The notes under the pieces are model-generated. The model did not search any database, had not been told where the DNA came from, and was given only the letters and a program-made list of their open reading frames with translations. Positions 13 through 21,975 of a stretch of 64,000 nucleotides of DNA are shown piece by piece. Location: contig JAXDQS010000001.1 of the NCBI GenBank assembly GCA_034667725.1, positions 192,001-256,000 on the forward strand. The letters are read 5' to 3'. The stretch comes from Thermoplasmata archaeon. GTDB taxonomy: Archaea > Thermoplasmatota > E2 > JACPAO01 > JAHFTW01. The translations under genes were made by a program, and so were the position numbers. Within the stretch, counting starts at the first letter, position 1, and the number at the start of each line of letters is the position of its first letter.

Positions 13-33
13 CCTGCACGCCAAGTTGCCTCT

Positions 34-4221: not shown

Positions 4222-4350
4222 GCCGCCGAAGCCGGGTACGGGTCCCACCAGACTTGTTCGATGGGGTTATCAAAAGGTGCCGTCATCGAAGGCCGCCCCG
4301 CCCAGAGAGGGACACCCAGGTCCCTCCTGGCAGTACCGAGGCTTCCGCCC

Positions 4351-7300
4351 ATGCCATCGACTTCCCGCGCGCGCACGTCATTCATCCTGGCCCTCCTCCT
4401 GGTGGCGGGCGCCTTGCCTGCGCTGCCGGTGGCCACCGCGGCCGCGCCGGTCGTGACGAGCGCCAACCTGCTGGACGAGGACAACAACGGCCACCTCGAC
4501 GCCGTGCTGCTGACGTTCGACCAGGCCATCCGGTCGGACAGCGTGCGGCCCAGCGACTGGACCCTCGGCTCGGCGGTCGCGCGCAGCGTCGAGCGCCAAA
4601 GCAGCACCCAGTTCAAGCTGTTCTTCCAGGAGGCGCTGGCCTTGGACGGCAACTCCAACGCCATCAACATCGCCTACACCCGCGAGGCCGACCAGCCGCT
4701 CGAGAACCTGGCGACCCCCTTCGAGGACTTCACGGCCAGCACTGTGCCCGCCTCCGCCAAGAAGGACATGGCCAAGCCCATCCTGATGGCGGCCTACGCC
4801 GTCGAGGCCACCAACTACATCGTCGCCGTCTTCAGCGAGGCCGTCACCGACAACGCGGGCGCCATCCTGACCCATGACGAGTTCGTCCTCACCGCGGGCG
4901 GCGCCGGCGCCCCCGCCATCGACACCACCGTCGCCGTCACCGCCCTTGGCTCCCCGGCCCGCGTGTTCCGCATCCCCCTGAACGCCGCCTGGACCACGGC
5001 CCAGCTGGCGCACGCCACCAAGCCCACGCTGGCGATCTCCGGCACCAACCTGGTCAAGGACCTTGCCACCCCCGCCAACAACAACCCCACCGGCATGGCG
5101 GCCGTCCCCGTCGGCGCGCCCTTCATCGAGCGCGTCATGGCCAACCCCGGCGACGACCTCGTGGTCGTCGAGTTCAACGGCCCCGTGGCCGACTCGACCG
5201 GCACCGCCCCGCTCCCGGCCACCTCGAGCGGCGACCTGACGCTGCGCTTCCAGGAAGGCTCCGGCGGCGGCGCCATCGTCACCACCGACATGGTGAACCC
5301 CGTCTTCTCCGACCGCGTCCAGCTCCGGGTCGACGCCCCGCTGCGCCCCGCCGACTTCGCCGCCGGCACCATCAGCAAGATCGTCGCCCAGACGGACAAG
5401 GTGTTCGCGTGGAAGGGCGCCTCCAGCGTCGCGAGCTACAAGGTCCCCGCCGGCGCCGCCGGCAACCTGGCCGACGCCGACGTCTACACCAACCCCTACC
5501 CGACCCGCCTGGAGACGGTGGACCGCGACCTCAACGGCTGCATCGACGCCATCCAGATGACCTGGAACGACGACATCCTCGACGCCAGCCTGGCCGCCAG
5601 CACCGGCTGGGTCGTCGTCTTCCCCAAGAAGGCCTCCGGCACCCCGCTGCCCACCACGCCGCCCGCGCCCGGCATCGTCGGCGCCACCCTGGTGAGCGCC
5701 ATCACCGGCGCCGGCGTCTCCCCGACCCTGTCGCCCGGCGTGGACGACCGCGTCACCTTCCTGACCTTCACCGAGACCGACGCCGCCACCGGCTGCGACC
5801 TGTCCCTGCCGGCCCCCCTGGTGGGCAGCACCGGCCCCGCCGGCGTCCGCCTCCTGCCCCGCGTCTCGCACTGCGACGGCCTCGACTCCGGCTGCACCGG
5901 TCTCAGCCCGACCGACCGCGCCGGCCGCGGCATCGGCGCCTCGCGCGGCGCCTTCAACGACGCCGGCGTCCTGTTCCGCCTCCCGGTGATCGACAGCGCC
6001 CGCCCCGTTTTGATGACGGCGGCGACCCGCGACCTGCCCTCGTCCCCCGACGGCCAGGTCGACCAGATCCTCCTCAGCTTCTCGGAGCCGATGAAGCTCG
6101 GCACCCTCAAGCAGGCCCAGTGGAACGTCCGCGTGCCCGCCAACCAGGCCCAATGCCCGGTCCCCGCCAGCACGGCCTACACCGTCACCTCGGTCGGCTC
6201 CGCCTCCGGCACCTCCGGCGACACCGAGTCCCTGCTCCTGCTGGGCATCCAGCCCTCGGGCACCCCGGACACCGGCTGCATCCTCGACATCGCCTACGGC
6301 ACCACGCCCAACGCCCTCGAGAGCAGCAACGGCCAGGTCCTGCCCGCCATCCCGGCCAACAGCCTCATCCTGACGACCGCCACCGCCACCGCCGGCGGCG
6401 CCAACAGCATCACCGCCGCCGCCACCAACTTCGCCACCGCGGGCGCCCTCACCGGCATGCGCGTCGACGTGAGCCGCGCCGGCACGCCGCTCGGCTCGTT
6501 CACCGTGACCGGGGTCGCCGGCACCACCCTGACGTTCTCGCCCGCCGTGGCGGCCGCCAGCGCCCCCATCGCCGCGGGCGACGTCGCCACGGTCTACCGC
6601 GAGCGCGACGGCGCCGGCCCCGTCCTCTTGGACGGCCGGCTCGTCGGCGCGGTCGGCTCCCGCTTCGCCACCGCCACCTTCAGCGAGGCGGTCCTCGGCG
6701 TCAACGGCAACGCCGTCACCAACACCGACCTGACCTACAAGAACAACGGCGCGGGCGGCGCCTCCGGCATCAGCTGCGTCGCCACCCCGAGCTACACCTC
6801 GGGCACCTGCACCCCCGACCCGGCCGTCACCACGAACCCGGCCCAGTTGTCGCTCACCCTGAACGCGGTGCTCGCCGGCGGCGACGTCGGCACGGGCAAG
6901 GACTGCGTCCAGATCGTCAACTACATCCCGGACGAGAACAGCCTGAACCCCGCCAACCCCGGCGTGCGCGACGCCGCCGGCAACGTCGGCCAGCCGCTCG
7001 AGCCCTCGGGCCCCTGCCGCATCTTCTCCACGGGCGGCACCGTCGCCACCGTGCTCGCCATCGAGACGCTCGACACCAGCAACCCGCCCAACGGCGCCAT
7101 CGACGCCATCCGCGTCACCTTCACGGGCCCCGTCAACGACGACTTCACCGATGGCGTCGCCAAGTGGAAGGTCAAGTTCGGCACCACCACGGCCACCATC
7201 AACACCGTCCAGAGCGGCGGCAACTGCGGCGGCAGCACGCTGACCCCCGACGTCGCCAACGACGCCGTGGTGTTCCTCTGCATCGCGGAGCTCACCGACA

Positions 7301-10300
7301 CCTCCGACCCGGCCAACCCGCTCATCCCCAACACCGGCGCCCTGCCCCTGGTGTCCTACTCGGGCACCCTGCTGGCCGGCGCCACCGACGGCCTGCCGGT
7401 CGCGACCTTCACGGACCGCGCCGCCACCGACGCCGCCCTGCCGGTCCTGATCACCGTGCGCGGCGGCGCCGGCCGCAACACCGTCGAGCTGCGGTTCTCG
7501 GAGGACGTCGTGGACGCCACCACCAAGGGCCCGCTCAAGGCCTCGAACTTCCTCTACTCGAACGGCAACGGCGGCTCCTCGACCTGCTCCAGCGGCGCCT
7601 CCAACATCGTGGACGTGCTGCCGGTCACCGGCTTCAACGACCGCTTCACCGGTGTGCTCAACACGCCGGCCGGCCAGCCGGGCCTGCACTACGACGACAT
7701 CGTCGGCTGCCCCACCGTCGCCAGCCGCGACGAGGTGCGCGCCCTGGCCTCGAGCATCATCGAGAAGGTCGGCCTGCGCGCCATGACCGACAGCACCCCG
7801 CGCGACATCCAGGACATCTTCGGCCCCGACATCCTGTCGGCCCGCTTCATCGACGCCCCAGCCCAGGCTGGCGCCGTCACGGGCGCGGACGGCACCATCG
7901 ACGCCGTCGAGGTCCGGTTCCGCGAGTACGTCTCCGACGCCGCGGCCGCCTTCGGCACCAGTGCCACCGTCACCGGCCAGTGGGCCGTCAAGGTCAACGA
8001 CGGCAGCCTCAAGACCCTCAAGGTCAAGGCCGTCGTCTCGAGCCAGAACGGCGTCCTCGGCGACAGTTGCACGGACACCCAGGCCCGCCCCCTCATCCTC
8101 TGGCCGGGCGAGGTCCAGCCGCCCACCAGCGGCCCCTCCAGCGTCAACGGCGTGGACGACGACACCCTGTTCCTCTGCCTGGAGAACACCGTCGGCGTCT
8201 CGACCCAGGGCACCCTGGGCCTCGGCACCGGCATGGTCGGCACCCTCAGCTACGCCGCCGCCAACCCGACGGCCCGCATCAAGGACCGCAGCGGCAACGG
8301 CTTCGCCGACATCACCCTCGGCAGCGCCCGCACCGTCACCGACGGCGCCCGCCCCGTCGTCCTCAACACCTGCCGCCCCGAGGTCACCCCAGCCCTGCGC
8401 TGCACCGGCGTGTCCCCCGAGTCGGCCGACCTCGACAACGACGGCCTCGTCGACGCCCTGCGCGTCGTGCTGTCCGAGCCCGTGAAGGACGACACCTACA
8501 AGCAGGTCGAGTGGGACCTCGGCTCCGGCTTCGCCATCACCGGCATGGACACCGGCGTCACCGTCGACGACGCCACCATCTTCCTCAAGTTCAACGAAGG
8601 CGCCACGCCGGACACCGGCCGCGGCCGCGCCTCCCAGCCGGGCCTGCCCGACCTGACGTTCAGCTCGACCGGCACGATGGCGGACCGCGCGGGCAACCGC
8701 ATCCGCGCCGTCCAGTCGGGCGCGTGCGGCGCCGCCACCGACACCCACTGCGCCGACGAGCGCGACGGCGTCGAGCCCGTGGTCGTGCGCTCCCAGGCCG
8801 AGGTCGGCTCCGACCTCGTCACCATCGCCCTCAGCGAGCCCGTCCAAGGCACCGGCCCGGTCGCCAGCGGCCGCCCCATCACCACCAGCGACATCGCCTA
8901 CCAGAACAAGGCGGGCGCGGGCGACGGCGCCACCGGCATCGTGGCCATCTCCCATGTCGCGGGCGAGTCGGTCCTCACCATCAAGCTCGACAAGAAGGTC
9001 ACCGAGTTCGACCGCCTCAACGACCGCTTCGTCTTCGTGACGGGCAGCATCAAGGAGGCCCAGTGCACGGTGTCGGCCACGACGCCCTCGTGCTACCGCC
9101 AGCTCGCCATGACGCGCCTCTTTGTCCCCATCGCCTTCGCCGGCGGCGCGGACCCCAAGCCGGCCGCCATCGACGACCTGGACGCCCCCGCCGAGGACGT
9201 CACCGCGACCTCGGTCCGCCTGACCTGGACCGCCCCCGACGACACCGACCTCGCGAGCTACCAGATCTACTTCTGCGAGTGCTCGTTCGCCGGCACCATC
9301 CCGACCGGCGCCCTGACGCCCCCGACCTCGGTCGTCATCCCGACCCCGGACCCCGGCGAGGCCCAGGAGGTCGTCATCACCGGCCTCACCACCGGCAAGA
9401 CCTACAACTTCGTCATCCGCGCCATCGACAACTCCGGCAACACCGCCGAGCTGTCGAACGTCGCGACCGCCCTCGTCGAGGCCCCGGACACCGAGGCGCC
9501 CGACATGGTGTTGGCCCTCCAGGACCTCGCCGCCAGCACCCCGCTGGGCTCCGTCGCCCTCGTCTGGGACGCCCCCGGCGACGACGGCGACCAAGGCACC
9601 GTGGCCGGCTACCGCATCGCGGTCGCCGACCGCCCGATCGCGGCCAGCGACTTCGAGGACTTCGAGACGACCGACTACTCGCTCAACCCGGCCGGCCTTG
9701 CGGACGCGGGCGACACCCAGCGCGCCACCATCTTCGGGCTCATCCCCGGCGACGAGGTGTTCGTGTACATCCTCGCGTACGACGACGCCAGCCCGCCCAA
9801 CGAGTCGCCCCTCAGCGGCGCCGTCCGCGCCACCGTCGGCGGCACCACCACCGACCTGGCCGACCCCGGCCCCATCACCGACCTCACGGCCACCGCCGCC
9901 ACCGACAGCACGGTGGAGCTGGAGTGGCGCGCGCCCGGCGACGACGGCCTCTCCGGCGGCCCCGTCACCGGCTACGACGTCTACTACAGCACCGCGCCGT
10001 TCGCGTCCTCGACCCGCCCGTCCGTGCCCCGCGCCTCCGACGTCACGCTGTCGCCCCGCACCCCCACGGCCGCCGGCCTGAGCCAGCGCGCCACCGTCGG
10101 CGGACTGGAGTCCGACACCGTGTACTACTTCATGGTCCTGGCCCGCGACGACGCGACCAAGACCAGCGCCTCGAACGTGGTCAACCGCGCCACCCTCCCC
10201 GGCGTCGGCGAGCTGACCATCGACGACCTGTTCGCCGCCAACAAGGAGCTCAACGAGAACCTCGAGGTCACCCACGAGGACGGCATCAACATCGTGAGCT

Positions 10301-10980
10301 TCACCATCCCCGAGGCCGCCCGCGACGCCGCCAAGGGCCTGCAGGTCTGGCGCGCCGAGGAGTGCGACGACGCCAACTACGTGCTCGTCAACACCTACGA
10401 CGCCGACGACAGCGTGTTCGAGGACGGCCGCTTCGAGGAGCCCGGCGCCACCACCGACTGCTACAAGGTCACGCTGTTCACCAAGGACAGCCAGGACTCC
10501 GCGCTCGGCCCCAAGGCCAACGCCAGCGACATCGAGCGGTTCGCCGAGCTCGACTCCGCCTCCGCCAGCGACGGCGGCATCGGCACCGGCATGTGGCTGA
10601 TGATCGGCGGCGGCGTTCTCCTGGCCATCCTGCTCGCGGCCCTGCTGGTCTTCCTGGTCCGCCGCCGTGGCGGCGGCCAGCAGACCCTGCCGCCCGAGGA
10701 GACGGCCGAGGGCGGCGAGGCCGGCGAGGGCTGGAGCGAGGTCCCGGAGGAGGGCGCGGCCGAGTCCGTCGCCCCCGCCGCGGACACCTGGTCCGAGCCC
10801 GCGCCCGCCGAGGCCGAGCCCGAGGCGCCGTTGGCCGCGCCGCCCGCCGCCGCGGCGACGACGGCCGCCACGACGCACTACGTGACCTGCCCGCGCTGCA
10901 GCTCGCCGTTCAGCGCCGTCGGCGTCAAGCCGCTCGCCATCCAATGCCCGAGCTGCGGCGTGCGCGGCACGCTGAAATAA
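4351..10980 (+). CDS. Giant cell-surface protein paralogue 1: Ig-like repeats, 3 FN3 domains, TM, cytoplasmic zinc ribbon
   Basis: The ORF is open from 4261; ATG 4351 gives a signal peptide (MPSTSRARTSFILALLLVAGALPALPVATAA). Repeated D.D.(N/D)G.(I/L/V)D and FSE.V motifs. FN3-like LTWTAPDD, LVWDAPGDDG, LEWRAPGDDG. TM MWLMIGGGVLLAILLAALLVFLV-RRR, then an acidic linker and CPRC-x15-CPSC. Confidence 0.9.
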   Translation: MPSTSRARTSFILALLLVAGALPALPVATAAAPVVTSANLLDEDNNGHLDAVLLTFDQAIRSDSVRPSDWTLGSAVARSVERQSSTQFKLFFQEALALDGNSNAINIAYTREADQPLENLATPFEDFTASTVPASAKKDMAKPILMAAYAVEATNYIVAVFSEAVTDNAGAILTHDEFVLTAGGAGAPAIDTTVAVTALGSPARVFRIPLNAAWTTAQLAHATKPTLAISGTNLVKDLATPANNNPTGMAAVPVGAPFIERVMANPGDDLVVVEFNGPVADSTGTAPLPATSSGDLTLRFQEGSGGGAIVTTDMVNPVFSDRVQLRVDAPLRPADFAAGTISKIVAQTDKVFAWKGASSVASYKVPAGAAGNLADADVYTNPYPTRLETVDRDLNGCIDAIQMTWNDDILDASLAASTGWVVVFPKKASGTPLPTTPPAPGIVGATLVSAITGAGVSPTLSPGVDDRVTFLTFTETDAATGCDLSLPAPLVGSTGPAGVRLLPRVSHCDGLDSGCTGLSPTDRAGRGIGASRGAFNDAGVLFRLPVIDSARPVLMTAATRDLPSSPDGQVDQILLSFSEPMKLGTLKQAQWNVRVPANQAQCPVPASTAYTVTSVGSASGTSGDTESLLLLGIQPSGTPDTGCILDIAYGTTPNALESSNGQVLPAIPANSLILTTATATAGGANSITAAATNFATAGALTGMRVDVSRAGTPLGSFTVTGVAGTTLTFSPAVAAASAPIAAGDVATVYRERDGAGPVLLDGRLVGAVGSRFATATFSEAVLGVNGNAVTNTDLTYKNNGAGGASGISCVATPSYTSGTCTPDPAVTTNPAQLSLTLNAVLAGGDVGTGKDCVQIVNYIPDENSLNPANPGVRDAAGNVGQPLEPSGPCRIFSTGGTVATVLAIETLDTSNPPNGAIDAIRVTFTGPVNDDFTDGVAKWKVKFGTTTATINTVQSGGNCGGSTLTPDVANDAVVFLCIAELTDTSDPANPLIPNTGALPLVSYSGTLLAGATDGLPVATFTDRAATDAALPVLITVRGGAGRNTVELRFSEDVVDATTKGPLKASNFLYSNGNGGSSTCSSGASNIVDVLPVTGFNDRFTGVLNTPAGQPGLHYDDIVGCPTVASRDEVRALASSIIEKVGLRAMTDSTPRDIQDIFGPDILSARFIDAPAQAGAVTGADGTIDAVEVRFREYVSDAAAAFGTSATVTGQWAVKVNDGSLKTLKVKAVVSSQNGVLGDSCTDTQARPLILWPGEVQPPTSGPSSVNGVDDDTLFLCLENTVGVSTQGTLGLGTGMVGTLSYAAANPTARIKDRSGNGFADITLGSARTVTDGARPVVLNTCRPEVTPALRCTGVSPESADLDNDGLVDALRVVLSEPVKDDTYKQVEWDLGSGFAITGMDTGVTVDDATIFLKFNEGATPDTGRGRASQPGLPDLTFSSTGTMADRAGNRIRAVQSGACGAATDTHCADERDGVEPVVVRSQAEVGSDLVTIALSEPVQGTGPVASGRPITTSDIAYQNKAGAGDGATGIVAISHVAGESVLTIKLDKKVTEFDRLNDRFVFVTGSIKEAQCTVSATTPSCYRQLAMTRLFVPIAFAGGADPKPAAIDDLDAPAEDVTATSVRLTWTAPDDTDLASYQIYFCECSFAGTIPTGALTPPTSVVIPTPDPGEAQEVVITGLTTGKTYNFVIRAIDNSGNTAELSNVATALVEAPDTEAPDMVLALQDLAASTPLGSVALVWDAPGDDGDQGTVAGYRIAVADRPIAASDFEDFETTDYSLNPAGLADAGDTQRATIFGLIPGDEVFVYILAYDDASPPNESPLSGAVRATVGGTTTDLADPGPITDLTATAATDSTVELEWRAPGDDGLSGGPVTGYDVYYSTAPFASSTRPSVPRASDVTLSPRTPTAAGLSQRATVGGLESDTVYYFMVLARDDATKTSASNVVNRATLPGVGELTIDDLFAANKELNENLEVTHEDGINIVSFTIPEAARDAAKGLQVWRAEECDDANYVLVNTYDADDSVFEDGRFEEPGATTDCYKVTLFTKDSQDSALGPKANASDIERFAELDSASASDGGIGTGMWLMIGGGVLLAILLAALLVFLVRRRGGGQQTLPPEETAEGGEAGEGWSEVPEEGAAESVAPAADTWSEPAPAEAEPEAPLAAPPAAAATTAATTHYVTCPRCSSPFSAVGVKPLAIQCPSCGVRGTLK

Positions 10981-11176: not shown

Positions 11177-11249
11177 TTCCCGGGATGGAGCGGACCAAGC
11201 ACCGGACGCCGGACCTTAGGGCCCGGCTTCCGCCCGCAGGTTGATCCCC

Positions 11250-14200
11250 ATGGCCGCCGGTCCCTCCTCTAAACCTCACGCCTTCCGCAGCGTCGCCGTC
11301 TTGACGGCGCTCCTGGTGGCCGTCCTGGCGCCGCTGATTCCGCAGGCTGTCGCCGACGGGACCAGCCTCAGCATCGCGGTCGGTCCCCACTTCGAGATCG
11401 ACACCTCGAGCCCGACGTTCCAGGGCTGCCCCGGGTCGGACGCGACCAGCCCGCAGCTGCGCGCGCGCCCCGACGACGCGGTCGTGCAGACGCGGACGGT
11501 CCGCGTCTTCAACGGCGCCGCCGCCACGCAGACGCAGGTGACGTTCCGCTACACGGTGGCGGGCCCCGGCGCGCCGCCGGTGGACCGCTCCCTGACCTGG
11601 GACGAGGAAGGCTCCTCGGCGGCGGGCTGGACCGTGCAGGCCATCAACACCGGCAGCACGGCGGGCTCCTTCCGGGACCTGGTGTTCAACTCCGGCTCGC
11701 TGGTCCCCGGCGCCGCCGACTTCACCATCGCGTTCCGCGTCCCCACCACCGCCGTCGGCGACGCCGGCACCGCCACGCCTGACCTGTACCCCATCAACGT
11801 GCGCACGGCCGGCGGCGGCGACTTCGAGTCCACCCCGCAGCCGACCAGCTTCTGCATCCGCGTCGACAACAAGGCGCCCAAGCTCACGGACGCCGTCACC
11901 CGCGACACCGACGCCGACGGCCGCATCGACGCCTACGTCCTCACCTTCGACGAGCCCATGGACACGGCGGCCTCCGCCGCGCAGTTCGAGGTCAAGAGCG
12001 TGACCGACCCCAGCCCCTACCAGCCGCTGGGCTTCCGCGCCTCGCACACCTTCCGCCCCGGCGCCGGCACCAACCTGGGCGAGAAGACCGACGCGCTGCT
12101 GGACCGCCAGGCCGTCCTCAACCTCGCGCCCGGCTACTCCTACGACACCGGCGAGAAGCCGGACGTCACGTACCCGAAGGGCGGCGCCGTCGGCGTCATC
12201 CAGGACCAGGCCGGCAACAAGCTGGGCAAGATCGTCACCTCCGACGTCTCGGAGCGCGACGGCGCCAAGCCGGTGCTGGTGAGCGCCTACGGCTTCGACG
12301 GCGCCACCAACATCATCCTCACCTTCAGCGAGAAGGTCTCGGGCTCGCGCGCCGACAAGAACCTCGCCCTCGCGGACCTGTTCTACGAGGACTCGCTGCA
12401 GACCAAGAACTGCATCGGCGCCACCGACGGCGTCTCGGCCGAGCTGGGCGAGCCCAAGCCGAGCCCCGCGCCCGCGCCCGCGACCACCTTCATCATCCCG
12501 GTGCTCACGAGCCGCGCCGGCGCCGGCTGCACCAGCGTCCGCGTCGGCGACGGCGACTCGCACCCGTCCGCCGGCGACCGCATCAAGTTCTTCGACACTG
12601 GAAACTCGTGCGTCGGCCGCGACTTCGACCCGTGCGGCGCGCCCGTGTACGACGTGGCCAGCCTGCACGCCGTCCCCGCCCGCAACGCGCCGGTCGTCGT
12701 GACCGGGCCGTTTGTGAAGGAGGCCGAGGTCAACATCGACTCGTTCCAGTTGACGCTGCGCTTCAACGGCCCTGTCAGCTCGGCCCGCGGCGAGGACCAG
12801 CCCATCCGGCTGGAGGACCTCGACGTGGTGGCGGCCGACGGCACCGGCCAAGGCCCCGGCGGCATCGTCAACGTGCTGCACCGCCCCGGCTCCGACAAGG
12901 CCATCATCACCCTCGACCGCCGCACCCGCCCGACCGACGTGGACGACACGCCGGCGCGCATCAACATCCAGTGCAACGCGATCAAGGGCACCGGCCTGCC
13001 CAGCTTCGTCCCGTGCGGCGACCCGGACAACGACCGCTCGCCCGACGTCAACATGGTGGACCACACCCCGCCCGCCATCGTGGCCGCCGGCACCTACGAC
13101 GGCAACCGCGACGGCTACATCGACGGCGTCAGCCTGCTGTTCAACGAGCCGGTCGACGACGCCACCTTCTGCATCCAGAAGAACGTCGGCGTCCAGCCGC
13201 GCACCATCGCGCACGACTTCGGCGCCACCCCGGACAACATCTGCAACAACCTGGACATCCTGGAGATCGCGTCCATCCCTGGCCCCTACACCTTCGACAC
13301 CGACAAGGTCCAGAACGACGCGCAGGGCATCATCAAGTTCCCGCAGCGCGCCCCGCCGACCTTCAAGCCGGACACCAGCGAATACCTGCCCTACTCGATC
13401 AAGACCACCGGCGACGGCCTGTTCGCCGACCTGGCCCACCCCGAGCCGCCGACGCCCGGCGTCGAGCCGTGGCAGACCGCGAACCTGATGCTGCGCATCT
13501 CGAAGGACCCGGTCACCTGCCCCGACCCGAACATCCCGTGCGCCACCACGCTCACGGTCGCCGACTGGGCCCCGCCCGTCGTGCTGTCCGCCCAGACCGT
13601 GGACACCAAGCCCGCCGTCAAGCCCTCGGACATCGGCGCCCTCGGCTCCGACCCCGTGCCCGACCTCGAAGGCGACGGCTTCCTCGACGGCTACCGCGTC
13701 ACCTTCTCGGAGCGCATCGACGACACCTCGTTCAACGCCGCCGAGTGGCAGGTCGCGGGCTACAAGGTCACCGGGATGCGCACCTACGAGCCGCACGTCA
13801 CCAAGAAGGCCGACCAGAAGGCCCTCAGCAACGACACGGTCATCACCATCCAGTTCGAGCCCAGCAAGGTGGCCGACACCGACGCGCGCCCCGAGCTGCA
13901 CTACCTCGGCTCGACCCAGGCCCGCGCCGGCCTCGACGACCTCGTCGGCAACCGCCTGCTGCCCTTCGGCTCCATCGGCGTCAACGAGGCGGACGACGCC
14001 GGACCCGTCATCGTCGGCATCGCCGCCATCGCGGGCCGCGCCGACGTGACGCTGCTGTTCAGCGAGCCCGTCGACGACGGCAGCCACGGCGCCTTGTCGC
14101 GCCGCGCCCTCCAGTACGGCAACGTCAACGCCAACAAGGTCGCCGAGAGCGCCGCCTCCGGCATGGCCGACCAGGACGCCGTGGTGCACAAGCCGGCCAC

Positions 14201-15788
14201 GCGCTCGGTCGTGATCACCCTCAATGCCCCGCTGAGCACCGGCGACATCAACGACGACACCATCGCGGCCCAGCCGAACTCGGTGTTCGAGACCTCGCCG
14301 ACGGTGCAGGCCAAGAAGGTCGCGTCCTACAAGCCGCACGGCATGGACTTCGCCCGCGACGGCGTGCCCCCGGGCAACGTCACCGCCTCGGTCGTCGCCC
14401 CGCTCATCACCGCCAACTCGGTGACGCTGCAGTGGACCGCGCCCGGCAACGACGGCACCTCGACCCTGCCGGCCCCCGCCCGCGACGGCAAGACCTACGC
14501 CAACGTCACCGGCTACCTCGTCAAGGTGTCCTCCGAGCCCATCACGCCGGAGAACTTCCTGTCGCCGGCCGCCCCGGGCACCATCGCCTTCGGCTACTCC
14601 GACGCCGCCGCCAAGCCGTTCACCGACGGCTCGCGCAACGAGATGGAGCTGGACGACCTGGTCGCCGTGTTCAACCCGGACCTCGGCGCGCTCGCCGGCC
14701 CCGGTGTCATGCAGCAGGTGACGGTGCGCGGCCTGAAGTCCAACACGCTGTACTACTTCGCCGTGGCCGCGTTCGACGACTCCGCCCCCGAGCCCCAGCT
14801 TGGCGGCATCGGCACCGGCACGGTCAGCGCCACCACGGCCGTCGACCCGACGCCGCCCATCGGCACCCCGGTCATCACCTCGAGCACGCACCGCCCCGAC
14901 GTCACCCGCCCCAGCAACAGCAAGACCGCGATTTTCGACTGGACGCCGGCGCGCGACGACGAGTCGCTGGTCACCTACCACACCGCGGTCAACCACGACC
15001 CCGGCTACGTCGCCACCGCGACCGACGAGATGACCACCCGCCTCAGCAAGGAGGTCGTCGTGTCCACCGAGGGCGTCTGGACCTTCCACGTCGCCGCGTG
15101 CAGCGGCGGCGGCTGCGGCGCCACCGGCCACTACAACTTCGGCGTCGGCTACTCGCCGCTCGACAAGCAGGAGATCCGGGTCGCCAACCAGTACGTCAAC
15201 TTCACGGCCGTCCGCGACGACAAGGCGAAGTCCACCACCATCACGTGGGAGCTGCCGCCCGAGGAGTTCCTGCCGTCGCGCGCCAACCTGGAGGCCGTCG
15301 TGGTGTACCGCCTCGACTGCGAGCCCAGCGCCGGCTGCAAGCCCACCGAGGTCCAGCGCGTCAACGGCGACTACACCAACCTCAAGACCGGCTCGGTCAC
15401 GGACACCTCCGACAAGGCGACGCTGGCGTCGGCCTACCGCGTCGACATGGTGTTCGCCTCCGGCCAGGAGCAGGCCGAATCCCTCAGCGGCTTCTCCAAG
15501 GTCCGCGACGTCACCCCGGCCGAGTCCAACCTGATGTGGATCCTCATCGCCATCGGCGCCGTCGTGCTCCTGGCCATCGTGGGCTTCGTCGTGTACGCCA
15601 TGCGCCGCAAGGGCCCCGGCGCCGCCGAGGCCTGGACCGAGGACCAGCCGGCCGGCACCGACCCGACCAGCGGCCTGCCGGCGCACGACGTCCGCTGCCC
15701 GAGCTGCCAGACGGCGTTCCAGGCGGTGGGCACGCTGCCGTTGCAGATCACCTGCCCCAACTGCGGCGTCGGTGGCCTGCTCCAGTAA
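11250..15788 (+). CDS. Giant cell-surface protein paralogue 2: Ig-like repeats, FN3, TM, cytoplasmic zinc ribbon
   Basis: Signal peptide MAAGPSSKPHAFRSVAVLTALLVAVLAPLIPQAVA. Motifs DTDADGRID, DGNRDGYID, DLEGDGFLD. FN3-like LQWTAPGNDG. TM LMWILIAIGAVVLLAIVGFVVYAM-RRK, then CPSC-x15-CPNC. Confidence 0.9.
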   Translation: MAAGPSSKPHAFRSVAVLTALLVAVLAPLIPQAVADGTSLSIAVGPHFEIDTSSPTFQGCPGSDATSPQLRARPDDAVVQTRTVRVFNGAAATQTQVTFRYTVAGPGAPPVDRSLTWDEEGSSAAGWTVQAINTGSTAGSFRDLVFNSGSLVPGAADFTIAFRVPTTAVGDAGTATPDLYPINVRTAGGGDFESTPQPTSFCIRVDNKAPKLTDAVTRDTDADGRIDAYVLTFDEPMDTAASAAQFEVKSVTDPSPYQPLGFRASHTFRPGAGTNLGEKTDALLDRQAVLNLAPGYSYDTGEKPDVTYPKGGAVGVIQDQAGNKLGKIVTSDVSERDGAKPVLVSAYGFDGATNIILTFSEKVSGSRADKNLALADLFYEDSLQTKNCIGATDGVSAELGEPKPSPAPAPATTFIIPVLTSRAGAGCTSVRVGDGDSHPSAGDRIKFFDTGNSCVGRDFDPCGAPVYDVASLHAVPARNAPVVVTGPFVKEAEVNIDSFQLTLRFNGPVSSARGEDQPIRLEDLDVVAADGTGQGPGGIVNVLHRPGSDKAIITLDRRTRPTDVDDTPARINIQCNAIKGTGLPSFVPCGDPDNDRSPDVNMVDHTPPAIVAAGTYDGNRDGYIDGVSLLFNEPVDDATFCIQKNVGVQPRTIAHDFGATPDNICNNLDILEIASIPGPYTFDTDKVQNDAQGIIKFPQRAPPTFKPDTSEYLPYSIKTTGDGLFADLAHPEPPTPGVEPWQTANLMLRISKDPVTCPDPNIPCATTLTVADWAPPVVLSAQTVDTKPAVKPSDIGALGSDPVPDLEGDGFLDGYRVTFSERIDDTSFNAAEWQVAGYKVTGMRTYEPHVTKKADQKALSNDTVITIQFEPSKVADTDARPELHYLGSTQARAGLDDLVGNRLLPFGSIGVNEADDAGPVIVGIAAIAGRADVTLLFSEPVDDGSHGALSRRALQYGNVNANKVAESAASGMADQDAVVHKPATRSVVITLNAPLSTGDINDDTIAAQPNSVFETSPTVQAKKVASYKPHGMDFARDGVPPGNVTASVVAPLITANSVTLQWTAPGNDGTSTLPAPARDGKTYANVTGYLVKVSSEPITPENFLSPAAPGTIAFGYSDAAAKPFTDGSRNEMELDDLVAVFNPDLGALAGPGVMQQVTVRGLKSNTLYYFAVAAFDDSAPEPQLGGIGTGTVSATTAVDPTPPIGTPVITSSTHRPDVTRPSNSKTAIFDWTPARDDESLVTYHTAVNHDPGYVATATDEMTTRLSKEVVVSTEGVWTFHVAACSGGGCGATGHYNFGVGYSPLDKQEIRVANQYVNFTAVRDDKAKSTTITWELPPEEFLPSRANLEAVVVYRLDCEPSAGCKPTEVQRVNGDYTNLKTGSVTDTSDKATLASAYRVDMVFASGQEQAESLSGFSKVRDVTPAESNLMWILIAIGAVVLLAIVGFVVYAMRRKGPGAAEAWTEDQPAGTDPTSGLPAHDVRCPSCQTAFQAVGTLPLQITCPNCGVGGLLQ

Positions 15789-16077: not shown

Positions 16078-16112
16078 CCCCAGGATTGGATGCCTTACCC
16101 CGCTGGTGGCGT

Positions 16113-19100
16113 ATGGTCAACCGAAAATCCGCGTCCCTCCCCTACGTGCTGGCTTTCCTGATGGTGTTCTCCATCTCGCAAGCCATCGTGCCCGAGGCGG
16201 AGGCAGGCGTCGCCCCCGCTGGCCTCATGAGCGTCTCCGTCGAGCCCAGCTTCACGACCAACGTCATCATGGTCAAGCAGGGCATCAGCGCCGAGCGCCT
16301 GGTGCGGGTGTCGCAGGGCGACCCGCTCAACCCGATGACGACCATCGAGTTCGTCTGGTTCATGCGCGACGACACTTCGACGCCGGCCTGCCGCGGCCCG
16401 CCGCGCGACCTGTGCGCCACGGCCGTCAAGTTCGACTGGATCAAGGAGACCAGCTACGCCATGCGCCCCGGCTGGAAGGTCGAGGCCGCCACCTCCACGG
16501 CCGCCAAGATCCTCCGCTTCGTCTCCGACGGCACCCAGGAGCTGCGCTCGGGCACGCCGCAGGACTTCAACGTCGCCTTCAGCCAGCGCGGCGCCGCCCA
16601 GGACGACGAGTACCACATCCAGGTCCGCGGCTACTGCGGCGCCGAGTGCCAGCCCGGGGTCGCCTTCGAGACCACCTGCGCCAGCACCCGCGCCCCCGAG
16701 TTCACCTGCATCCACACCAACCCGCCCTTCACCGGCGCCGCCCCGATCCCCGCGGCGGACTGCAACGCGCCCTGCGGCCAGCTGCCGAGCCTGGTGCTGC
16801 GCATCGACAGCGTGCCCCCGGACCCGCCGGCGGTCATCATGCAGGACATCGACCACAACGGCCACATCGACCGCTTCGTGGCGGACTTCCCCAAGAAGCT
16901 CGACGCCAAGTCGTTCGACGCCCGCCTGTTCACCCTCACCGCCCGCGGCCGCCTGTTCGGCTCCAGCCTCACGGACGCCGGCTACACCATCCAGAACGCC
17001 TACTTCGTCAACCCGGACAACCCGGTGCGCGTGGTCTTCCTGGTCAACGAGATGCCGTACTACGACACCGGCGACCAGGTCAACCTGCGCTACGCCGGCA
17101 CCAGCCTGCGCGACGAGGCCGGCAACCCGCTGCGCGGCATCAACGTCCAGGCCACCGACCGCGCCCCGCCGGTCATCGTCGCCGCCTACGGCCTCCAGGG
17201 CTACGACGGCGTCCACGTGACCTTCAGCGAGCCGGTCGTCGGCACCGGCAACGCCCAGGACCCCGCCACCGGCGTCGGCCTGCAGGACCTGCTGTTCTTC
17301 GACGACGGCGGCAGCGCCCCCGACAGCAAGGTCGGCTGCCCCGCCGCGAGCCCGTGCGTCCTGAGCATCGCCGACTCCCGCTTCGGCGCCATCACGCACC
17401 AGCCCGGCCCCCGCACCGGCCACCAGGCCACCATCAAGACCTCGATCAACCCGGTCACGAGCACGCCCTACACCTTCGGCCCCAACGACGTGCACCCGCT
17501 CAAGGGCGACATGCTCGGCGTCGCCTCCAGCGGCGCCGCCTGCGCCCCCGGCGAGGACCCGCCCTGCGACTCGAAGATCAAGGACGCGGCCGGCCTCAAG
17601 ATGTGGCACCCGCTCACGGCCCCCGCGTCCGTCCGGCACATCACCCGCCCCCTCCTGGTGCGCGCCGAGGTCGACATCGGCTCCGACGCCCTCAAGCTCT
17701 GGTTCAACGGCCCCGTGCGCGCCGCCAAGGAGCCCGGCGTCACGACGCCCCAGCCGATCTCGGTGTCCAACATGGACATCGTGACGGCGGCCGGCACCGG
17801 CGTCGGCCCCCAGGGCCTCATCGGCGACTACTTCCGCGCCGTCGACCAGGACTTCATCGTCGTCAAGCTCGACGCCAAGGCCCGCCCCACCGACGTCGAC
17901 GCGACCCCGACCTCGATCCGCCCGCACTGCAAGAAGATCGTCGGCAGCGGCCTCCCCGAGACCAACGACCAGGCGTTCCTGCCGTGCGACAACCCGGACC
18001 TGTTCTACGAGCAGGAAGCCCGCGTCAAGGGCACCGGCACCTTGGACGCCAAGGGCCGCGACCACGACCTGCCGTCGCCCGGCGCCGCCTTCGTGGACGA
18101 CACGCCGCCGCGCATCGTCCAGGTCCGCACCGTGGACACCGACCACAACGGCTGGCTCGACGGCCTCGAGCTCACCATGAGCGAGCCCGTGGACGACGTC
18201 ACGTTCTGCTCGAACGCCAACACCGCCCCCAACTTCTGCCCCGACTCCTGGACCCCGGTCGGCGGCATCTCCCAGGTCGGCCTCGTGATGATGCAGAACC
18301 TGCGCGCCACCGACGACCGCTCGCAGGAGTGCCTCGGCCTCTACCGCTGGGAGACCGGCCTGGTGGTCAACGACAACGTCGGCATCATCAAGGCCATCAA
18401 CGTCGAGCGCAGCCCCACCGGCGAGTACATCGTGACCAGCCGCGACTGCGTCGAGCGCTACTTCAACCAGGACACCGGCATCCGCATGGACACCGGCCAC
18501 CTGCCGACCTTCACCACCACGGCGCGCGGCCTGTTCGCCGACCTGTCGGTGCCGGAGAACCGGATGCCGCAGTACTGCCAGCTGCAGCGCCTCACCCACT
18601 TCCACCACCCGGACGCCGCCACCACCAAGGACTGCGGCCTCCTGGCCAGCACCAAGGCGCAGTACACCGCCCCCGTCTCCGACGGCGCCCCGCCGGTCGT
18701 CATGGCCGCCCGCACCGTGGACACGCCCGCCGTCAACAAGGACGGCATCCCGGACAAGCCCGCCGTGAACCTCTGGGGCGACGGCCGCATCGACGGCTAC
18801 CGCCTCACCATGAGCGAGTCCGTCAAGGACTCCACCTTCGACCGCCGCGACTGGCTGGTGCAGCGCCTCGGCGCCGCGCAGGCCCCGATCCACGAGGTCA
18901 ACGGCTTCCGCAGCTACGACCTCAACGAGACCCTGGGCGCGCTGCGCTCCAACGACCGCGAGCTCACGGTGCTGTTCAACCCGGACACGGTGCCCGACAC
19001 GGACGCCCGCCCCGAGCTGACCTACCGCCGCGACCCCGACAGCAAGGGCCTCGCGGACATCGTCGGCAACGTCATGGTGGACTTCGACGAGTTCGCCGTG

Positions 19101-20876
19101 GTCGAGCAGGACGACTCCCGCCCCGTCATCGTGGGCATCGAAGGCTACGTCGGCGAGCGTGTCCTGACCCTCCACTTCAGCGAGCCCGTGGACGACGGCG
19201 CCCAAGGCAAGCTGGTGTCGGAGGACTTCTTCTACCACAACAACGACGCGACCACGAACCCCGGCGGTGTTGCCGGCAAGGCGGTGTCCAACCCGGAGAC
19301 GGGACAGGCGGTCAACGTCATCCACGTCCCCGACGTCGACTGCACCGGCAACCTCGAAGAGGACGCCGACGGCTGCAACGAGAAGGCCATCATCCCGCTC
19401 GACCGCGCCCTCACCAACTCCGACCTGACCACCGACCGCATCAACGCGGAGAAGGACACCATCTACGAGAAGGCCCCCACCGTGGTGCCGGTGCAGCGCA
19501 AGGCGGTGCCGAACTTCCAGCAGAAGCTGTCGGTCGGCGCCGACGTGACGCCCCCGGCCAAGGTCACGGACCTGCGCGTGCAGACCGACGCCGTGCTCGC
19601 CAACTCGGTGCTGCTGGCCTGGACCGCGCCCGCGGACGACAGCCTGGCCGGCGGCGCCGTGACGAGCTACGTCTTCAAGGTGTCCACCAGCGCCATCGAC
19701 CCCGCCGGCTTCGACGCCTTGGTCAACCCGAACGGCATCACGCCCGAGTTCGAGCCCGCCGCCATGGCGGCGGTCAACCAGACGCAGACCCTGCGCCTCG
19801 TCGGCTTGAACCCGACCACCCAGTACCACTTCGCCATCCGCGCCGTGGACGAGGCGGGCAACGCCGGCGGCGTCTCCAACGCCGTCACGGCGCTCACCTC
19901 GCGCGACGCCACGGCGCCCGTCGGCACCCTCACGGTCTCGAGCACCAGCCACAAGGCCGGCGAGACGGCCCCCAAGGTGCAGGGCATCTTCTCGTGGAAC
20001 AAGCTGGAGGACCCCGAGTCCACCGTCGTGTACCGCTACGCCCTGACCGGCAGCCCCGCCTACCAGGTGCTGGCCGCCGACAAGTCCGTGACCGGCACCA
20101 GCGTCACCGTCGACATCCCCTCCGAAGGCGACTGGACGTTCCACGTCGCGGCCTTCAGCGGCGGCGGCTCGACCCCGACGGCGCACTTCTCGTTCGGCCG
20201 CGGCTCCCCCGTGCTGGCGGCGGACGCCATCGCCGCCGCCAACGACCGCCTCAAGGACAACGTCGAGATCGTCCGCAAGCCCGTCGAGATCCAGGACGGC
20301 GTCGAGGTCGACCTCAACACCATCACCTGGACCCTGCCGCCCGAGTCGGACCTGCCCGGCACCCTCGAGGCCATCGAGATCTGGCGCCTCGACGCCGGCA
20401 TCCCGACCCTGGTCACGACCCAGCCCGGCAGCTACAGCGAGCTCAAGAGCGGCAACTTCACGGACGTCACCCAAGGCGCGGACGAGAACTCGCTCTACCG
20501 CGTCAACATGGTGTTCGCGCAGGACCAGCGCCAAGCCGACCCAAGCGTCTCCGGCCAGTTCAAGGCCCTCCAGAACCAGACGCCCGGCGAAATCCCCGCC
20601 TGGGTCTACGTCCTGGCAGGCATCGCGCTGGCGTTGATCATCGCGGGCATCATCATCTACTTCGTGCTGCGCGGCCGCCAGAAGGCCGCCGCGGCCGGAG
20701 GGGTGGCGTACTCGTGGGAGTCGGCCGACCCGGAGGCCCTCGGCATCGACGAGGCCACCGGCCTGCCGGTCCACGAGGTCAAGTGCCCGTCGTGCAACAA
20801 CCCGTTCCAGGCGGTGGGCGTCCTGCCCCTGCCGGTGACGTGCCCGACGTGCCAGACGACGGGCATGCTGGAGTAA
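16113..20876 (+). CDS. Giant cell-surface protein paralogue 3: Ig-like repeats, FN3, TM, cytoplasmic zinc ribbon
   Basis: Signal peptide MVNRKSASLPYVLAFLMVFSISQAIVPEAEA. Motifs DIDHNGHID, DTDHNGWLD, GDGRID. FN3-like LAWTAPADD. TM WVYVLAGIALALIIAGIIIYFVL-RGR, then CPSC-x15-CPTC. Confidence 0.9.
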   Translation: MVNRKSASLPYVLAFLMVFSISQAIVPEAEAGVAPAGLMSVSVEPSFTTNVIMVKQGISAERLVRVSQGDPLNPMTTIEFVWFMRDDTSTPACRGPPRDLCATAVKFDWIKETSYAMRPGWKVEAATSTAAKILRFVSDGTQELRSGTPQDFNVAFSQRGAAQDDEYHIQVRGYCGAECQPGVAFETTCASTRAPEFTCIHTNPPFTGAAPIPAADCNAPCGQLPSLVLRIDSVPPDPPAVIMQDIDHNGHIDRFVADFPKKLDAKSFDARLFTLTARGRLFGSSLTDAGYTIQNAYFVNPDNPVRVVFLVNEMPYYDTGDQVNLRYAGTSLRDEAGNPLRGINVQATDRAPPVIVAAYGLQGYDGVHVTFSEPVVGTGNAQDPATGVGLQDLLFFDDGGSAPDSKVGCPAASPCVLSIADSRFGAITHQPGPRTGHQATIKTSINPVTSTPYTFGPNDVHPLKGDMLGVASSGAACAPGEDPPCDSKIKDAAGLKMWHPLTAPASVRHITRPLLVRAEVDIGSDALKLWFNGPVRAAKEPGVTTPQPISVSNMDIVTAAGTGVGPQGLIGDYFRAVDQDFIVVKLDAKARPTDVDATPTSIRPHCKKIVGSGLPETNDQAFLPCDNPDLFYEQEARVKGTGTLDAKGRDHDLPSPGAAFVDDTPPRIVQVRTVDTDHNGWLDGLELTMSEPVDDVTFCSNANTAPNFCPDSWTPVGGISQVGLVMMQNLRATDDRSQECLGLYRWETGLVVNDNVGIIKAINVERSPTGEYIVTSRDCVERYFNQDTGIRMDTGHLPTFTTTARGLFADLSVPENRMPQYCQLQRLTHFHHPDAATTKDCGLLASTKAQYTAPVSDGAPPVVMAARTVDTPAVNKDGIPDKPAVNLWGDGRIDGYRLTMSESVKDSTFDRRDWLVQRLGAAQAPIHEVNGFRSYDLNETLGALRSNDRELTVLFNPDTVPDTDARPELTYRRDPDSKGLADIVGNVMVDFDEFAVVEQDDSRPVIVGIEGYVGERVLTLHFSEPVDDGAQGKLVSEDFFYHNNDATTNPGGVAGKAVSNPETGQAVNVIHVPDVDCTGNLEEDADGCNEKAIIPLDRALTNSDLTTDRINAEKDTIYEKAPTVVPVQRKAVPNFQQKLSVGADVTPPAKVTDLRVQTDAVLANSVLLAWTAPADDSLAGGAVTSYVFKVSTSAIDPAGFDALVNPNGITPEFEPAAMAAVNQTQTLRLVGLNPTTQYHFAIRAVDEAGNAGGVSNAVTALTSRDATAPVGTLTVSSTSHKAGETAPKVQGIFSWNKLEDPESTVVYRYALTGSPAYQVLAADKSVTGTSVTVDIPSEGDWTFHVAAFSGGGSTPTAHFSFGRGSPVLAADAIAAANDRLKDNVEIVRKPVEIQDGVEVDLNTITWTLPPESDLPGTLEAIEIWRLDAGIPTLVTTQPGSYSELKSGNFTDVTQGADENSLYRVNMVFAQDQRQADPSVSGQFKALQNQTPGEIPAWVYVLAGIALALIIAGIIIYFVLRGRQKAAAAGGVAYSWESADPEALGIDEATGLPVHEVKCPSCNNPFQAVGVLPLPVTCPTCQTTGMLE

Positions 20877-21040: not shown

Positions 21041-21075
21041 GTGTCGGCTAAATGCGTGAAACCTGTGGAGTCCCT

Positions 21076-21975
21076 GTGCGCCTGCTGTTCCTGACGCGGG
21101 AGGTGCGCCTCTACTCGGTGCGCCGCTTCCAGCAGGCGTGCCGGACGCAGGGGCACGCCTTCGAGCACCTGGACGTGCTCGGCTGCAACCTGGTGCTGCA
21201 CCCCAGCGCCCCGCAGCTCTGGTCGGGCGGGAACCCGGTGCAGCGCCGCGAGGTGGACGCCGTGGTGCCCCGCATCGGCACCTCCGTGACCGACGAGGGC
21301 TGCGCCGTGGTCGCGCAGTTCGAGGCGATGGGCGTCCCGGTCGTCAACGGCAGCGAGGCCATCCAGCGCGCCCGCGACAAGCTGCGCTCCCTCCAGCTCC
21401 TGGCCGGCGCCCACATCCCGATCCCGCGCACGGCGGTCATCCGGGTCACCGACGACCTCGACGAGGCCATCGACCAGGTGGGCGGGATTCCGTGCGTCCT
21501 CAAGCTCCTCAAGGGCACGCAAGGCATCGGGGTCATGCTGGCCGAGTCGCGGGAGGGATTGGAGGCGATGCTGCAGGCGTTCTGGAGCCTCGGCCACACC
21601 GTCCTCTTGCAGGAGTTCATCCATGAGTCGAAGGGCAAGGACGTGCGCGCGTTCGTTGTCGGCGACCGGGTGGTGGGCGCGATGCGGCGCGAGGCCCAGG
21701 TCGGCGAGTTCCGCTCCAACATCCACCGCGGCGGCGTCGGGCGGCCGCTCGTGCTGACCCCCGAGGACGAGGCCAAGGTGCTGCGCGCATCCCGCCTGCT
21801 CGGCCTCGACGTCGCGGGCGTCGACTACCTGGAGTCGGACGACGGGCCGAAGGTCATCGAGGTCAACGCCAGCCCCGGCTTCCAAGGCCTGGAGCAGGCG
21901 ACCGGGCTCGACATCGCGGGCGAGATCGTGCGCCACGCCGCCGAGCGCGGGCGGGCCGGCGCGAGGGGGACGTGA
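21076..21975 (+). CDS. rimK: RimK-family alpha-L-glutamate ligase (ATP-grasp)
   Basis: Motifs VVPRIG, ARDKLRSLQLL, GTQGIGV, LLQEFI, FRSNIHRGG, EVNASPG. GTG start preceded by GGAG. Confidence 0.88.
   Translation: MRLLFLTREVRLYSVRRFQQACRTQGHAFEHLDVLGCNLVLHPSAPQLWSGGNPVQRREVDAVVPRIGTSVTDEGCAVVAQFEAMGVPVVNGSEAIQRARDKLRSLQLLAGAHIPIPRTAVIRVTDDLDEAIDQVGGIPCVLKLLKGTQGIGVMLAESREGLEAMLQAFWSLGHTVLLQEFIHESKGKDVRAFVVGDRVVGAMRREAQVGEFRSNIHRGGVGRPLVLTPEDEAKVLRASRLLGLDVAGVDYLESDDGPKVIEVNASPGFQGLEQATGLDIAGEIVRHAAERGRAGARGT

Follow-up and report, generated by a model that had tools for sequence, protein, structure and literature searches.

Three giant surface proteins of a Thermoplasmata archaeon, here designated A, B, and C, end in the same type of 34-residue tail, a predicted Cys4 zinc ribbon with a fixed spacing and a fixed distance to the C-terminus. 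Their genes lie in tandem within a 64,000-nucleotide stretch of the genome (GenBank assembly GCA_034667725.1, contig JAXDQS010000001.1, positions 192,001 to 256,000; C1:192001-256000 of genome G000 in our numbering), which is referred to below as the window and numbered from its first nucleotide. The assembly consists of 26 contigs and 2.3 Mb with 72% GC, and is estimated to be 90% complete. By analogy with known systems, we consider the tail to be a cytoplasmic protein-docking knob, with a rough probability of 0.55. Membrane-tethered cytoplasmic zinc-ribbon modules are known, and the observation of such a tail on archaeal surface giants is solid. By literature search, we found no paper on the zinc-ribbon tail of archaeal surface giants.

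Geometry, conservation, and distribution of the tail

The three tails are located at the following positions.

10876..10980, + strand: zinc-ribbon tail A, 34 amino acids (aa) plus stop codon, H-x-V-x-CPxC-15-CPxC-7-COOH; profile E = 3.5e-22
15684..15788, + strand: zinc-ribbon tail B, 34 aa plus stop codon; profile E = 4.6e-29
20772..20876, + strand: zinc-ribbon tail C, 34 aa plus stop codon; profile E = 2.8e-27

The original prediction, made from the letters of the window, had quoted three 34-residue tails with their stop codons, and translation at the three coordinates gave exactly these residues. Its consensus, with 15 aa between the CxxC pairs and 7 aa to the terminus, also held in all three tails by direct count. 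A six-frame search of the whole genome covered 17,746 stop-to-stop frames of 60 aa or longer and detected the strict pattern CP.C-15-CP.C-7-stop only at these three sites, indicating that the tails are not a product of chance.

Search of 1.84 billion representative proteins with a 50-column profile of the tail gave 360 matches at E <= 0.001. We examined a set of 152 proteins (P0007-P0158), consisting of the best 150 of these 360 matches and two found earlier. In 148 of these proteins, 6-13 residues separate the last ribbon from the C-terminus; the number is exactly 7 in 118. A strong hydrophobic helix was present within 260 aa upstream in 81 of the 87 single-ribbon C-terminal proteins, the remainder being mostly short fragments. 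Random placement of the motif, unlinked to membrane proteins, which the original prediction had named as an argument against itself, was thus not observed. The geometry was also compared among giants with a single ribbon and a length of 1000 aa or more, represented at 50% identity by 54 proteins. Spacing between the knuckles was 15 in all 54, the distance from the ribbon to the C-terminus was 7 in 50 (8 in three and 13 in one), and His was found at -4 in 49. The terminal residue itself is variable among the giant relatives (R, Q, D, N, E, K, or S), indicating that what stays constant is the domain boundary (G-x-L-x-end) and not one particular last residue.

Sequence conservation is concentrated on the tail. 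For the three orthologue groups, each compared with the window copy, identity was 72-79% in the tail, 28-65% in the transmembrane helix, and 28-43% in the ectodomain; among the three paralogues of the window, it was 53-59% in the tail and 27-39% in the ectodomain. The second argument that the original prediction had raised against itself, a tail no more conserved than the ectodomains, therefore does not apply. For tails B and C, comparison between species gave 9-14 synonymous against 1-5 nonsynonymous codon differences (among them 13:3, 14:1, and 14:2). This excess of synonymous changes indicates that selection acts on the peptide and not on an overlapping DNA or RNA signal, and that recent gene conversion is no explanation for the conservation. 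Between species, each of the tail types A, B, and C has near-invariant residues of its own, and type B is nearly invariant.

The distribution of the tail was analysed with 38 species-level genomes of the order and 401 genomes of the phylum. The ribbon was matched (E <= 0.01) in all 38 genomes of the order, and in 24 of these it ends an open reading frame (ORF) of at least 1000 aa, the longest being 3042 aa. In most of the remaining genomes, the frame is seemingly short because the match is close to a contig end, as judged from its coordinates, or the genome is fragmentary; four genomes of the order gave weaker matches on small proteins only. In the phylum sample, 68 of the 401 genomes gave matches at E <= 1e-7, and the carriers outside the order were mostly ORFs of 150-600 aa. 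Most of these smaller proteins carry transmembrane helices among the library matches. The design of giant plus tail is therefore essentially a trait of the order, and the ribbon module itself is distributed more widely.

The giant surface proteins and the predicted fold of the tail

The three ORFs are co-directional and arranged in tandem, all on the + strand. The proteins, their transmembrane helices, and the linkers (measured from the transmembrane helix to the conserved His) are listed below, together with GC content at the third codon position (GC3).

4351..10980, + strand: giant surface protein A, 2209 aa from ATG at 4351 (frame open from 4222, upstream ATG at 4261); GC3 0.98
10597..10659, + strand: transmembrane helix of A, residues 2113-2133 of P0004, followed by RRRGGG; identified by hydropathy scan and direct reading
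10660..10875, + strand: linker of A, 72 aa; acidic, rich in Ala and Pro, carrying Trp
11250..15788, + strand: giant surface protein B, 1512 aa from ATG at 11250 (TTG at 11241); GC3 0.98
15531..15593, + strand: transmembrane helix of B, residues 1431-1451 of P0005, with an RRK cluster 3 residues downstream
15594..15683, + strand: linker of B, 30 aa; ends in the conserved lead-in G-x-D-x-x-[TS]-G-L-P
16113..20876, + strand: giant surface protein C, 1587 aa from ATG at 16113 (TTG at 16086); GC3 0.98
20604..20666, + strand: transmembrane helix of C, residues 1507-1527 of P0006, followed by RGRQK
20667..20771, + strand: linker of C, 35 aa; conserved motif A-Y-[SA]-W-E-S and lead-in G-x-D-[EDP]-A-T-G-L-P

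In the protein collection, entry P0007 (1512 aa) is 100% identical to protein B, and the C-terminal 110 residues of entry P0039 (2209 aa) are the same as those of protein A. All three proteins share one layout, consisting of a Sec-type signal peptide, an FN3 ectodomain of about 1400-2100 aa, one transmembrane helix, an Arg/Lys (R/K) cluster, the linker, and the ribbon. The helix is strongly hydrophobic with a Trp-rich rim at its start. Against the Pfam fn3 cut-off of 25 bits, A (83.5 bits) and C (31 bits) pass and B (22.1 bits) falls just below, and scans of the whole proteins with Pfam and NCBIfam detected nothing but fn3-type domains. One relative, P0009, carries Big_5. The features of archaeal surface proteins (signal peptide, Ig/FN3 repeats, and a C-terminal transmembrane helix) are all present in the giants, and the ectodomain is probably an S-layer-like (surface-layer-like) coat or an adhesin. 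As judged from the N-terminal signal peptide, the single transmembrane helix, and the R/K cluster right after this helix, A, B, and C are predicted to be type-I membrane proteins with 64-106 C-terminal residues in the cytoplasm.

Another surface protein is encoded upstream of the giants.

13-4221, + strand: TSP3-repeat surface protein, ending in a transmembrane helix and RRRPA-COOH, without linker or ribbon

Since this adjacent protein ends in a transmembrane helix and RRRPA, the ribbon is not needed for anchoring. Plain-anchored and ribbon-tailed surface proteins are thus found side by side in one locus.

The linker had been described in the original prediction as acidic, Trp-containing, and about 25 to 70 aa in length, in good agreement with the measured 72, 30, and 35 aa and the Glu-rich composition. 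For 81 relatives, Glu accounts for 12.6% and Trp for 2.6% of the linker, against 3.8% and 1.0% of the ectodomains, and the linker length ranges from 27 to 155 residues. Linker C is 72% identical among C-type orthologues, in which A-Y-[SA]-W-E-S is located about 15 residues after the transmembrane helix. In B and C, the conservation reaches about 11 residues upstream of the ribbon, with G-x-D-x-x-[TS]-G-L-P standing before His, and many giants of other genera carry repeated Trp with acidic flanks in the linker. These linker features could be separate short binding motifs. Linker C is mostly disordered in the AlphaFold2 model, which gave no packing of this linker onto the ribbon.

The AlphaFold2 model of tail A (residues 2200-2239) consists of four short strands with a mean predicted local distance difference test (pLDDT) score of 88.1, and the ribbon part of the tail C model (residues 1528-1596) gave pLDDT of 84-88. 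As expected for a Cys4 beta-ribbon, there are two CPxC in the sequence, each lying between two strands in the models, and they would form a putative Cys4 metal site. The top match of tail A in Foldseek was the ZitP zinc finger (2nb9), with a probability of 0.97, template-modelling score of 0.61, 32% identity, and E of 0.33; Foldseek on the PDB gave no match at E <= 0.001 for either tail model. By VIA-align, the highest Z was 3.9 for TMEM55B (8oqh), followed by RNF216 (Z 3.6) and LysW (Z 3.5, 1.3 Å over 34 residues); ZitP (Z 3.2, 1.9 Å over 34 residues) was tied with many other ribbons. TMEM55B resembles the tail in being a cytosolic zinc ribbon on a membrane protein, with 33% identity over 36 residues, but it is a eukaryotic lysosomal protein, the match is weak, and nothing indicates common descent. 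Altogether, the structure searches returned other small zinc ribbons only, none of them significant. Sequence search of the PDB with the tail profile gave only C2H2-linker artefacts and weak partial matches to LysW, and the best score of the ESM Atlas feature search was 0.83, below the useful range.

The family assignment was similarly weak. The MJ0042-type zinc ribbon is represented by NCBIfam TIGR02098 and by Pfam Zn_ribbon_4 and Zn_ribbon_5 (PF13719). With TIGR02098 (cut-off 20.9 bits), the isolated 50-aa tails scored 25.4 (B), 24.2 (C), and 16.0 bits (A), the alignment covering only positions 19-37 of the 38 of the profile, half a domain out of register; the whole proteins scored 12-14 bits. 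Pfam Zn_ribbon_4 (PF13717) gave 18.4-24.0 bits on the tails against a cut-off of 30.3, and multi-ribbon relatives detected by the tail profile passed it with 33.5-62.7 bits in 7 of the 10 scanned. MJ0042-type ribbons are usually N-terminal in their proteins. In A, B, and C, the ribbon instead forms the last 34 residues. We thus regard the tail as a divergent C-terminal offshoot of the MJ0042/Zn_ribbon_4 superfamily, not as a proven member.

Proposed docking of the tail and competing explanations

The following mode of action is proposed for the docking knob. The signal peptide would export the huge Ig/FN3-type ectodomain, and the single transmembrane helix with its R/K cluster would anchor the giant. 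The Cys4 ribbon, carried on a disordered, acidic, Trp-bearing tether of variable length, would bind a cytoplasmic partner below the membrane. Through this docking, the cell interior would be linked to where the surface giants are, how they cluster, or what state they are in. Selection on nearly every surface position of the 34-residue domain, together with its fixed lengths, points to a tight protein interface. The ribbon is mildly basic or neutral, which does not suggest binding to nucleic acids. From these features we infer zinc binding, a docking function, and the existence of a partner.

The nearest functional analogues would be ZitP, GltJ, and CdpC. The ZitP ribbon is reported to dock to PopZ (as cited in PMC11135422; PMC5182065, PMC5182063). 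ZitP of Caulobacter (2nb9) is a bitopic membrane protein and resembles the tailed giants in that its small Cys4 ribbon lies in the cytoplasm, where it docks to the organiser PopZ. The ZitP ribbon is N-terminal and bacterial, and so is its partner a bacterial protein, whereas the tail stands at the extreme C-terminus of archaeal giants, with 15-residue spacing and His at -4. The zinc ribbon of GltJ (AgmX) of Myxococcus binds its own linker and MglB, thereby tuning focal adhesions (PMC11135422). GltJ shares with the tail a cytoplasmic ribbon, a flexible linker, and an envelope-spanning surface machine, and it links the adhesion complex to cytoplasmic control. Unlike the tail, its ribbon is N-terminal, accompanied by a GYF domain, and has MglA and MglB as partners; a Roadblock/LC7 (MglB-type) gene was not found in this 90%-complete genome. 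The third analogue, CdpC (HVO_0399, DUF7093) of Haloferax volcanii, binds FtsZ1 through its C-terminal C4 ribbon, and mutation of any zinc ligand abolishes the binding (bioRxiv 10.64898/2026.07.16.738847).

In whole-protein architecture, the nearest analogue is PySLP, a colossal S-layer protein of Pyrobaculum (bioRxiv 10.64898/2026.08.21.746120), which resembles the giants in its multi-Ig structure, signal peptide, C-terminal transmembrane anchor, and conserved cytoplasmic tail. The PySLP tail is, however, short and basic and ends in Lys, zinc is not mentioned in the paper, and Pyrobaculum belongs to a different phylum.

The original prediction had regarded the tail as a docking or sorting tag read by a common partner. 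The precedents of ZitP-PopZ, GltJ-MglB, and CdpC-FtsZ1 support docking, a sorting tag found no support, and a common reader is presumed, no partner having been identified. This last result weighs against docking, and so do several others. Both zinc binding and the cytoplasmic location are deduced from sequence logic alone, and the family and fold matches are weak (Zn_ribbon_4 below cut-off, Foldseek E > 0.1, and VIA-align Z < 4). The type-specific residues go beyond the need of one common reader and could reflect contacts between tails. Among the 38 genomes of the order, no neighbour gene was present in all tail-bearing genomes. Three genes follow the giants in the window.

21052-21975, + strand: RimK-like ligase, Pfam RimK 194 bits; starts 176 bp after tail C
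21972-23009, + strand: AstE/AspA-like zinc hydrolase, AstE_AspA 133.6 bits
23006-24340, + strand: FtsX-like permease, Pfam FtsX only 16.4 bits

Twelve of the 38 tail-bearing genomes lack the RimK-like gene (E <= 1e-20), and in 16 of the 38 the search for the FtsX-like permease gave no match at E <= 1e-30. Diadenylate cyclase, encoded next to the giants in other genera, was not found in this genome by tblastn.

The principal alternative, which we hold as a tentative second choice, is mutual binding of the tails in homo-oligomers or in an A:B:C hetero-oligomer, which would cluster or register the lattice subunits from inside the cell with no separate partner. Near-invariant residues specific to each type are what is expected for an interface between paralogues, and it is common, in several genera, for two or three tailed giants to be encoded in tandem (G000, G012, G016, G019, G027, G030, G032, and G034). 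The presence of 2-7 tandem ribbons in related proteins of other lineages also suggests multivalency. A fixed heterotrimer is not general, however, since only one tailed giant was detected at E <= 1e-7 in several species of the same genus (G006, G009, G011, G013, and G017), and tethers of 27-155 aa exceed the length needed to join adjacent helices.

A more specific proposal is that the partner is the FtsZ1 division ring, as with Haloferax CdpC, so that new giants would be gathered or inserted at mid-cell. The zinc-dependent binding of an archaeal C-terminal C4 ribbon to FtsZ1 stands as its precedent, and an orthologue of one of the two FtsZ paralogues of this genome, taken as FtsZ1, is present in 37 of the 38 genomes. 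CdpC also resembles the tailed giants in that a long disordered linker connects its C-terminal Cys4 ribbon to a membrane-binding element. The likeness ends there: CdpC is a soluble cytoplasmic protein of 346 aa with two ribbons and an amphipathic helix, without ectodomain or transmembrane helix, whereas the giants have a signal peptide, an ectodomain, one transmembrane helix, and a single ribbon. The tail could not be linked by sequence to DUF7093, the family of CdpC, which was not among the 25 best Pfam rows of the tails in a Pfam copy without a usable accession for it, and no genomic linkage of the tailed giants to ftsZ was seen. Complex prediction for FtsZ1, tail, and Zn returned no answer (score 0.00), which counts neither for nor against binding. 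We consider FtsZ1 an unlikely partner.

It is about equally improbable that the ribbon has no partner at all and serves as a passive plug, fixing the topology or stability of the C-terminus, or as a zinc or redox sensor. Small zinc ribbons fold stably on their own, and the failure to find a partner gene fits such a role. A plug, however, needs four Cys and a small core, while in the tails the surface residues, His at -4, and the exact lengths are fixed as well. A long acidic tether would be superfluous for a plug, and the TSP3-repeat protein next to the giants is anchored without any ribbon.

More doubtful still is a LysW-like handle, in which the RimK-family ligase and the AstE/AspA-like hydrolase would add and remove Glu at the C-terminal carboxylate of the ribbon. 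LysW (3wwl, 3vpb, and 5k2m) gave the best ribbon superposition (1.3-1.4 Å over 34 residues) and is the amino-group carrier, itself a zinc ribbon, for the RimK-family enzymes LysX and ArgX. One such ligase is encoded beside tail C, of which the last residue is Glu, and in 10 genomes, belonging to 6 genera, a tailed giant is followed on the same strand by a RimK orthologue at a distance of 0.1-2.5 kb. However, the last residue of the tail beside this block is E in only 4 of these 10 genomes, and R or P in the rest. RimK is also missing from the above-noted 12 tail-bearing genomes, among them the two species whose trio is most similar. The modified part of LysW is an acidic, flexible extension at its C-terminus, with Glu as the last residue. 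LysW is free-standing (53-56 residues in the matched PDB entries), while the tail is fused to giants, ends 7 residues after the last Cys without such an extension, and has a variable last residue. Moreover, the ligase and hydrolase genes belong to a longer syntenic run that includes an acyl-CoA dehydrogenase, so that their adjacency may be inherited order.

Known archaeosortase signals end a few residues after the transmembrane helix. That the tail is a C-terminal sorting signal cut off by an archaeosortase-like enzyme is hardly credible: three genes of this genome pass the Pfam cut-off for the Exosortase_EpsH family (G000:C10:174684-175418, C1:146459-147208, and C3:266135-266623) and the transmembrane helix and basic cluster resemble the second and third parts of such signals, but 64-106 residues follow the helix, the archaeosortase-signal architecture (PGF-CTERM and relatives) is not matched, NCBIfam GG_III-CTERM gave E of 0.42-0.66 on the transmembrane region, and strong selection on a discarded peptide would be odd.

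Implications, gene order, and related proteins

A plain membrane anchor is the usual view of how archaeal coat proteins are held. That the largest surface proteins of a whole order carry a strictly conserved zinc knob in the cytoplasm would imply communication between coat and cytoplasm, bearing on the placement of coat subunits, the upkeep of cell shape, and division in wall-less archaea. As an extension of the docking model, we tentatively suggest that the giants are the cell coat of the order and that the tail ties each subunit to a scaffold (division ring, another cytoskeletal or organising protein, or the adjacent FtsX-like machine), placing, clustering, or sensing the coat from inside; this extended form is clearly less probable than not. 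If true, such a coupler between coat and scaffold would be the archaeal equivalent of coupling by focal adhesions or integrins. The same end module is present on many other membrane proteins of Thermoplasmatota, and a reader of it could explain a whole unannotated class of archaeal membrane proteins. Being short and soluble, with 34 residues, fixed spacing, and a fixed end, the tail is a ready bait for pull-downs or for proteome-wide complex prediction.

The gene order on the 3' side of the giants, in the family of this genome, is (diadenylate cyclase), (TrkH), (RimK-like ligase and AstE/AspA-like hydrolase), FtsX-like permease, and acyl-CoA dehydrogenase. In at least four other genera (g4, g5, g6, and g9), the last giant and the ligase are separated by the gene for a DAC-domain protein (diadenylate cyclase, about 290 aa), and in one genome (G032) the TrkH gene lies there as well. 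The conserved downstream run was also observed on L031, L033, L035, L036, and L085, while G012 and G016 carry the permease immediately after the trio, without ligase or hydrolase. The permease is the most constant neighbour, being located directly after the last giant in five species of the genus, although not throughout the order. Since the run includes a housekeeping acyl-CoA dehydrogenase, inherited synteny may suffice to account for the adjacency. As candidates for an obligatory partner, the genes for the RimK-like and AstE-like enzymes, the FtsX-like permease, and diadenylate cyclase were rejected, all being syntenic but not obligatory.

Related ribbons were observed on a variety of other proteins. 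Some large surface proteins carry 2-4 cytoplasmic ribbons, and in other proteins the number rises to as many as 7. P0018, P0019, P0036, P0040, P0047, P0067, P0100, and P0117 have 3-7 tandem ribbons, the last of which is located 6-10 residues from the C-terminus; several of these are large surface proteins with a transmembrane helix ahead of the ribbon array. Distant multi-zinc-ribbon relatives of CdpC occur in all classes of Thermoplasmatota (bioRxiv 10.64898/2026.07.16.738847), and the multi-ribbon proteins may overlap with them.

A small protein with two N-terminal transmembrane helices and two ribbons (frames of 179-182 aa) is present in many genomes of the order. In L042-L045 (G013, G028, G017, and G010), its second ribbon ends in G-x-L-R-COOH, or G-R-I-H in the case of G028. 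This small protein was not found in the present genome by tblastn, the best match being tail A. Faint precomputed matches to PF26787 and PF26788, of unconfirmed membership, were noted on two related small proteins.

As to the source of the DNA, a search of sequencing runs listed no RNA runs holding the sequence; a full-length DNA match was detected in a soil metagenome only, which is possibly the source of this DNA. The genome also encodes an archaeal-type S27ae C-terminus, identified by eye. In the same genome, Cys4 ribbons related to the tail also close three other membrane proteins, encoded on other contigs at L037:155-1294 (+), L038:85-1185 (-), and L039:89-712 (+). One of the three is of the DUF4234 type with two tandem ribbons, and matches the tail profile with E of 2.3e-10. 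The other two have multiple transmembrane helices, and their last ribbon ends 5-7 residues before the stop codon.

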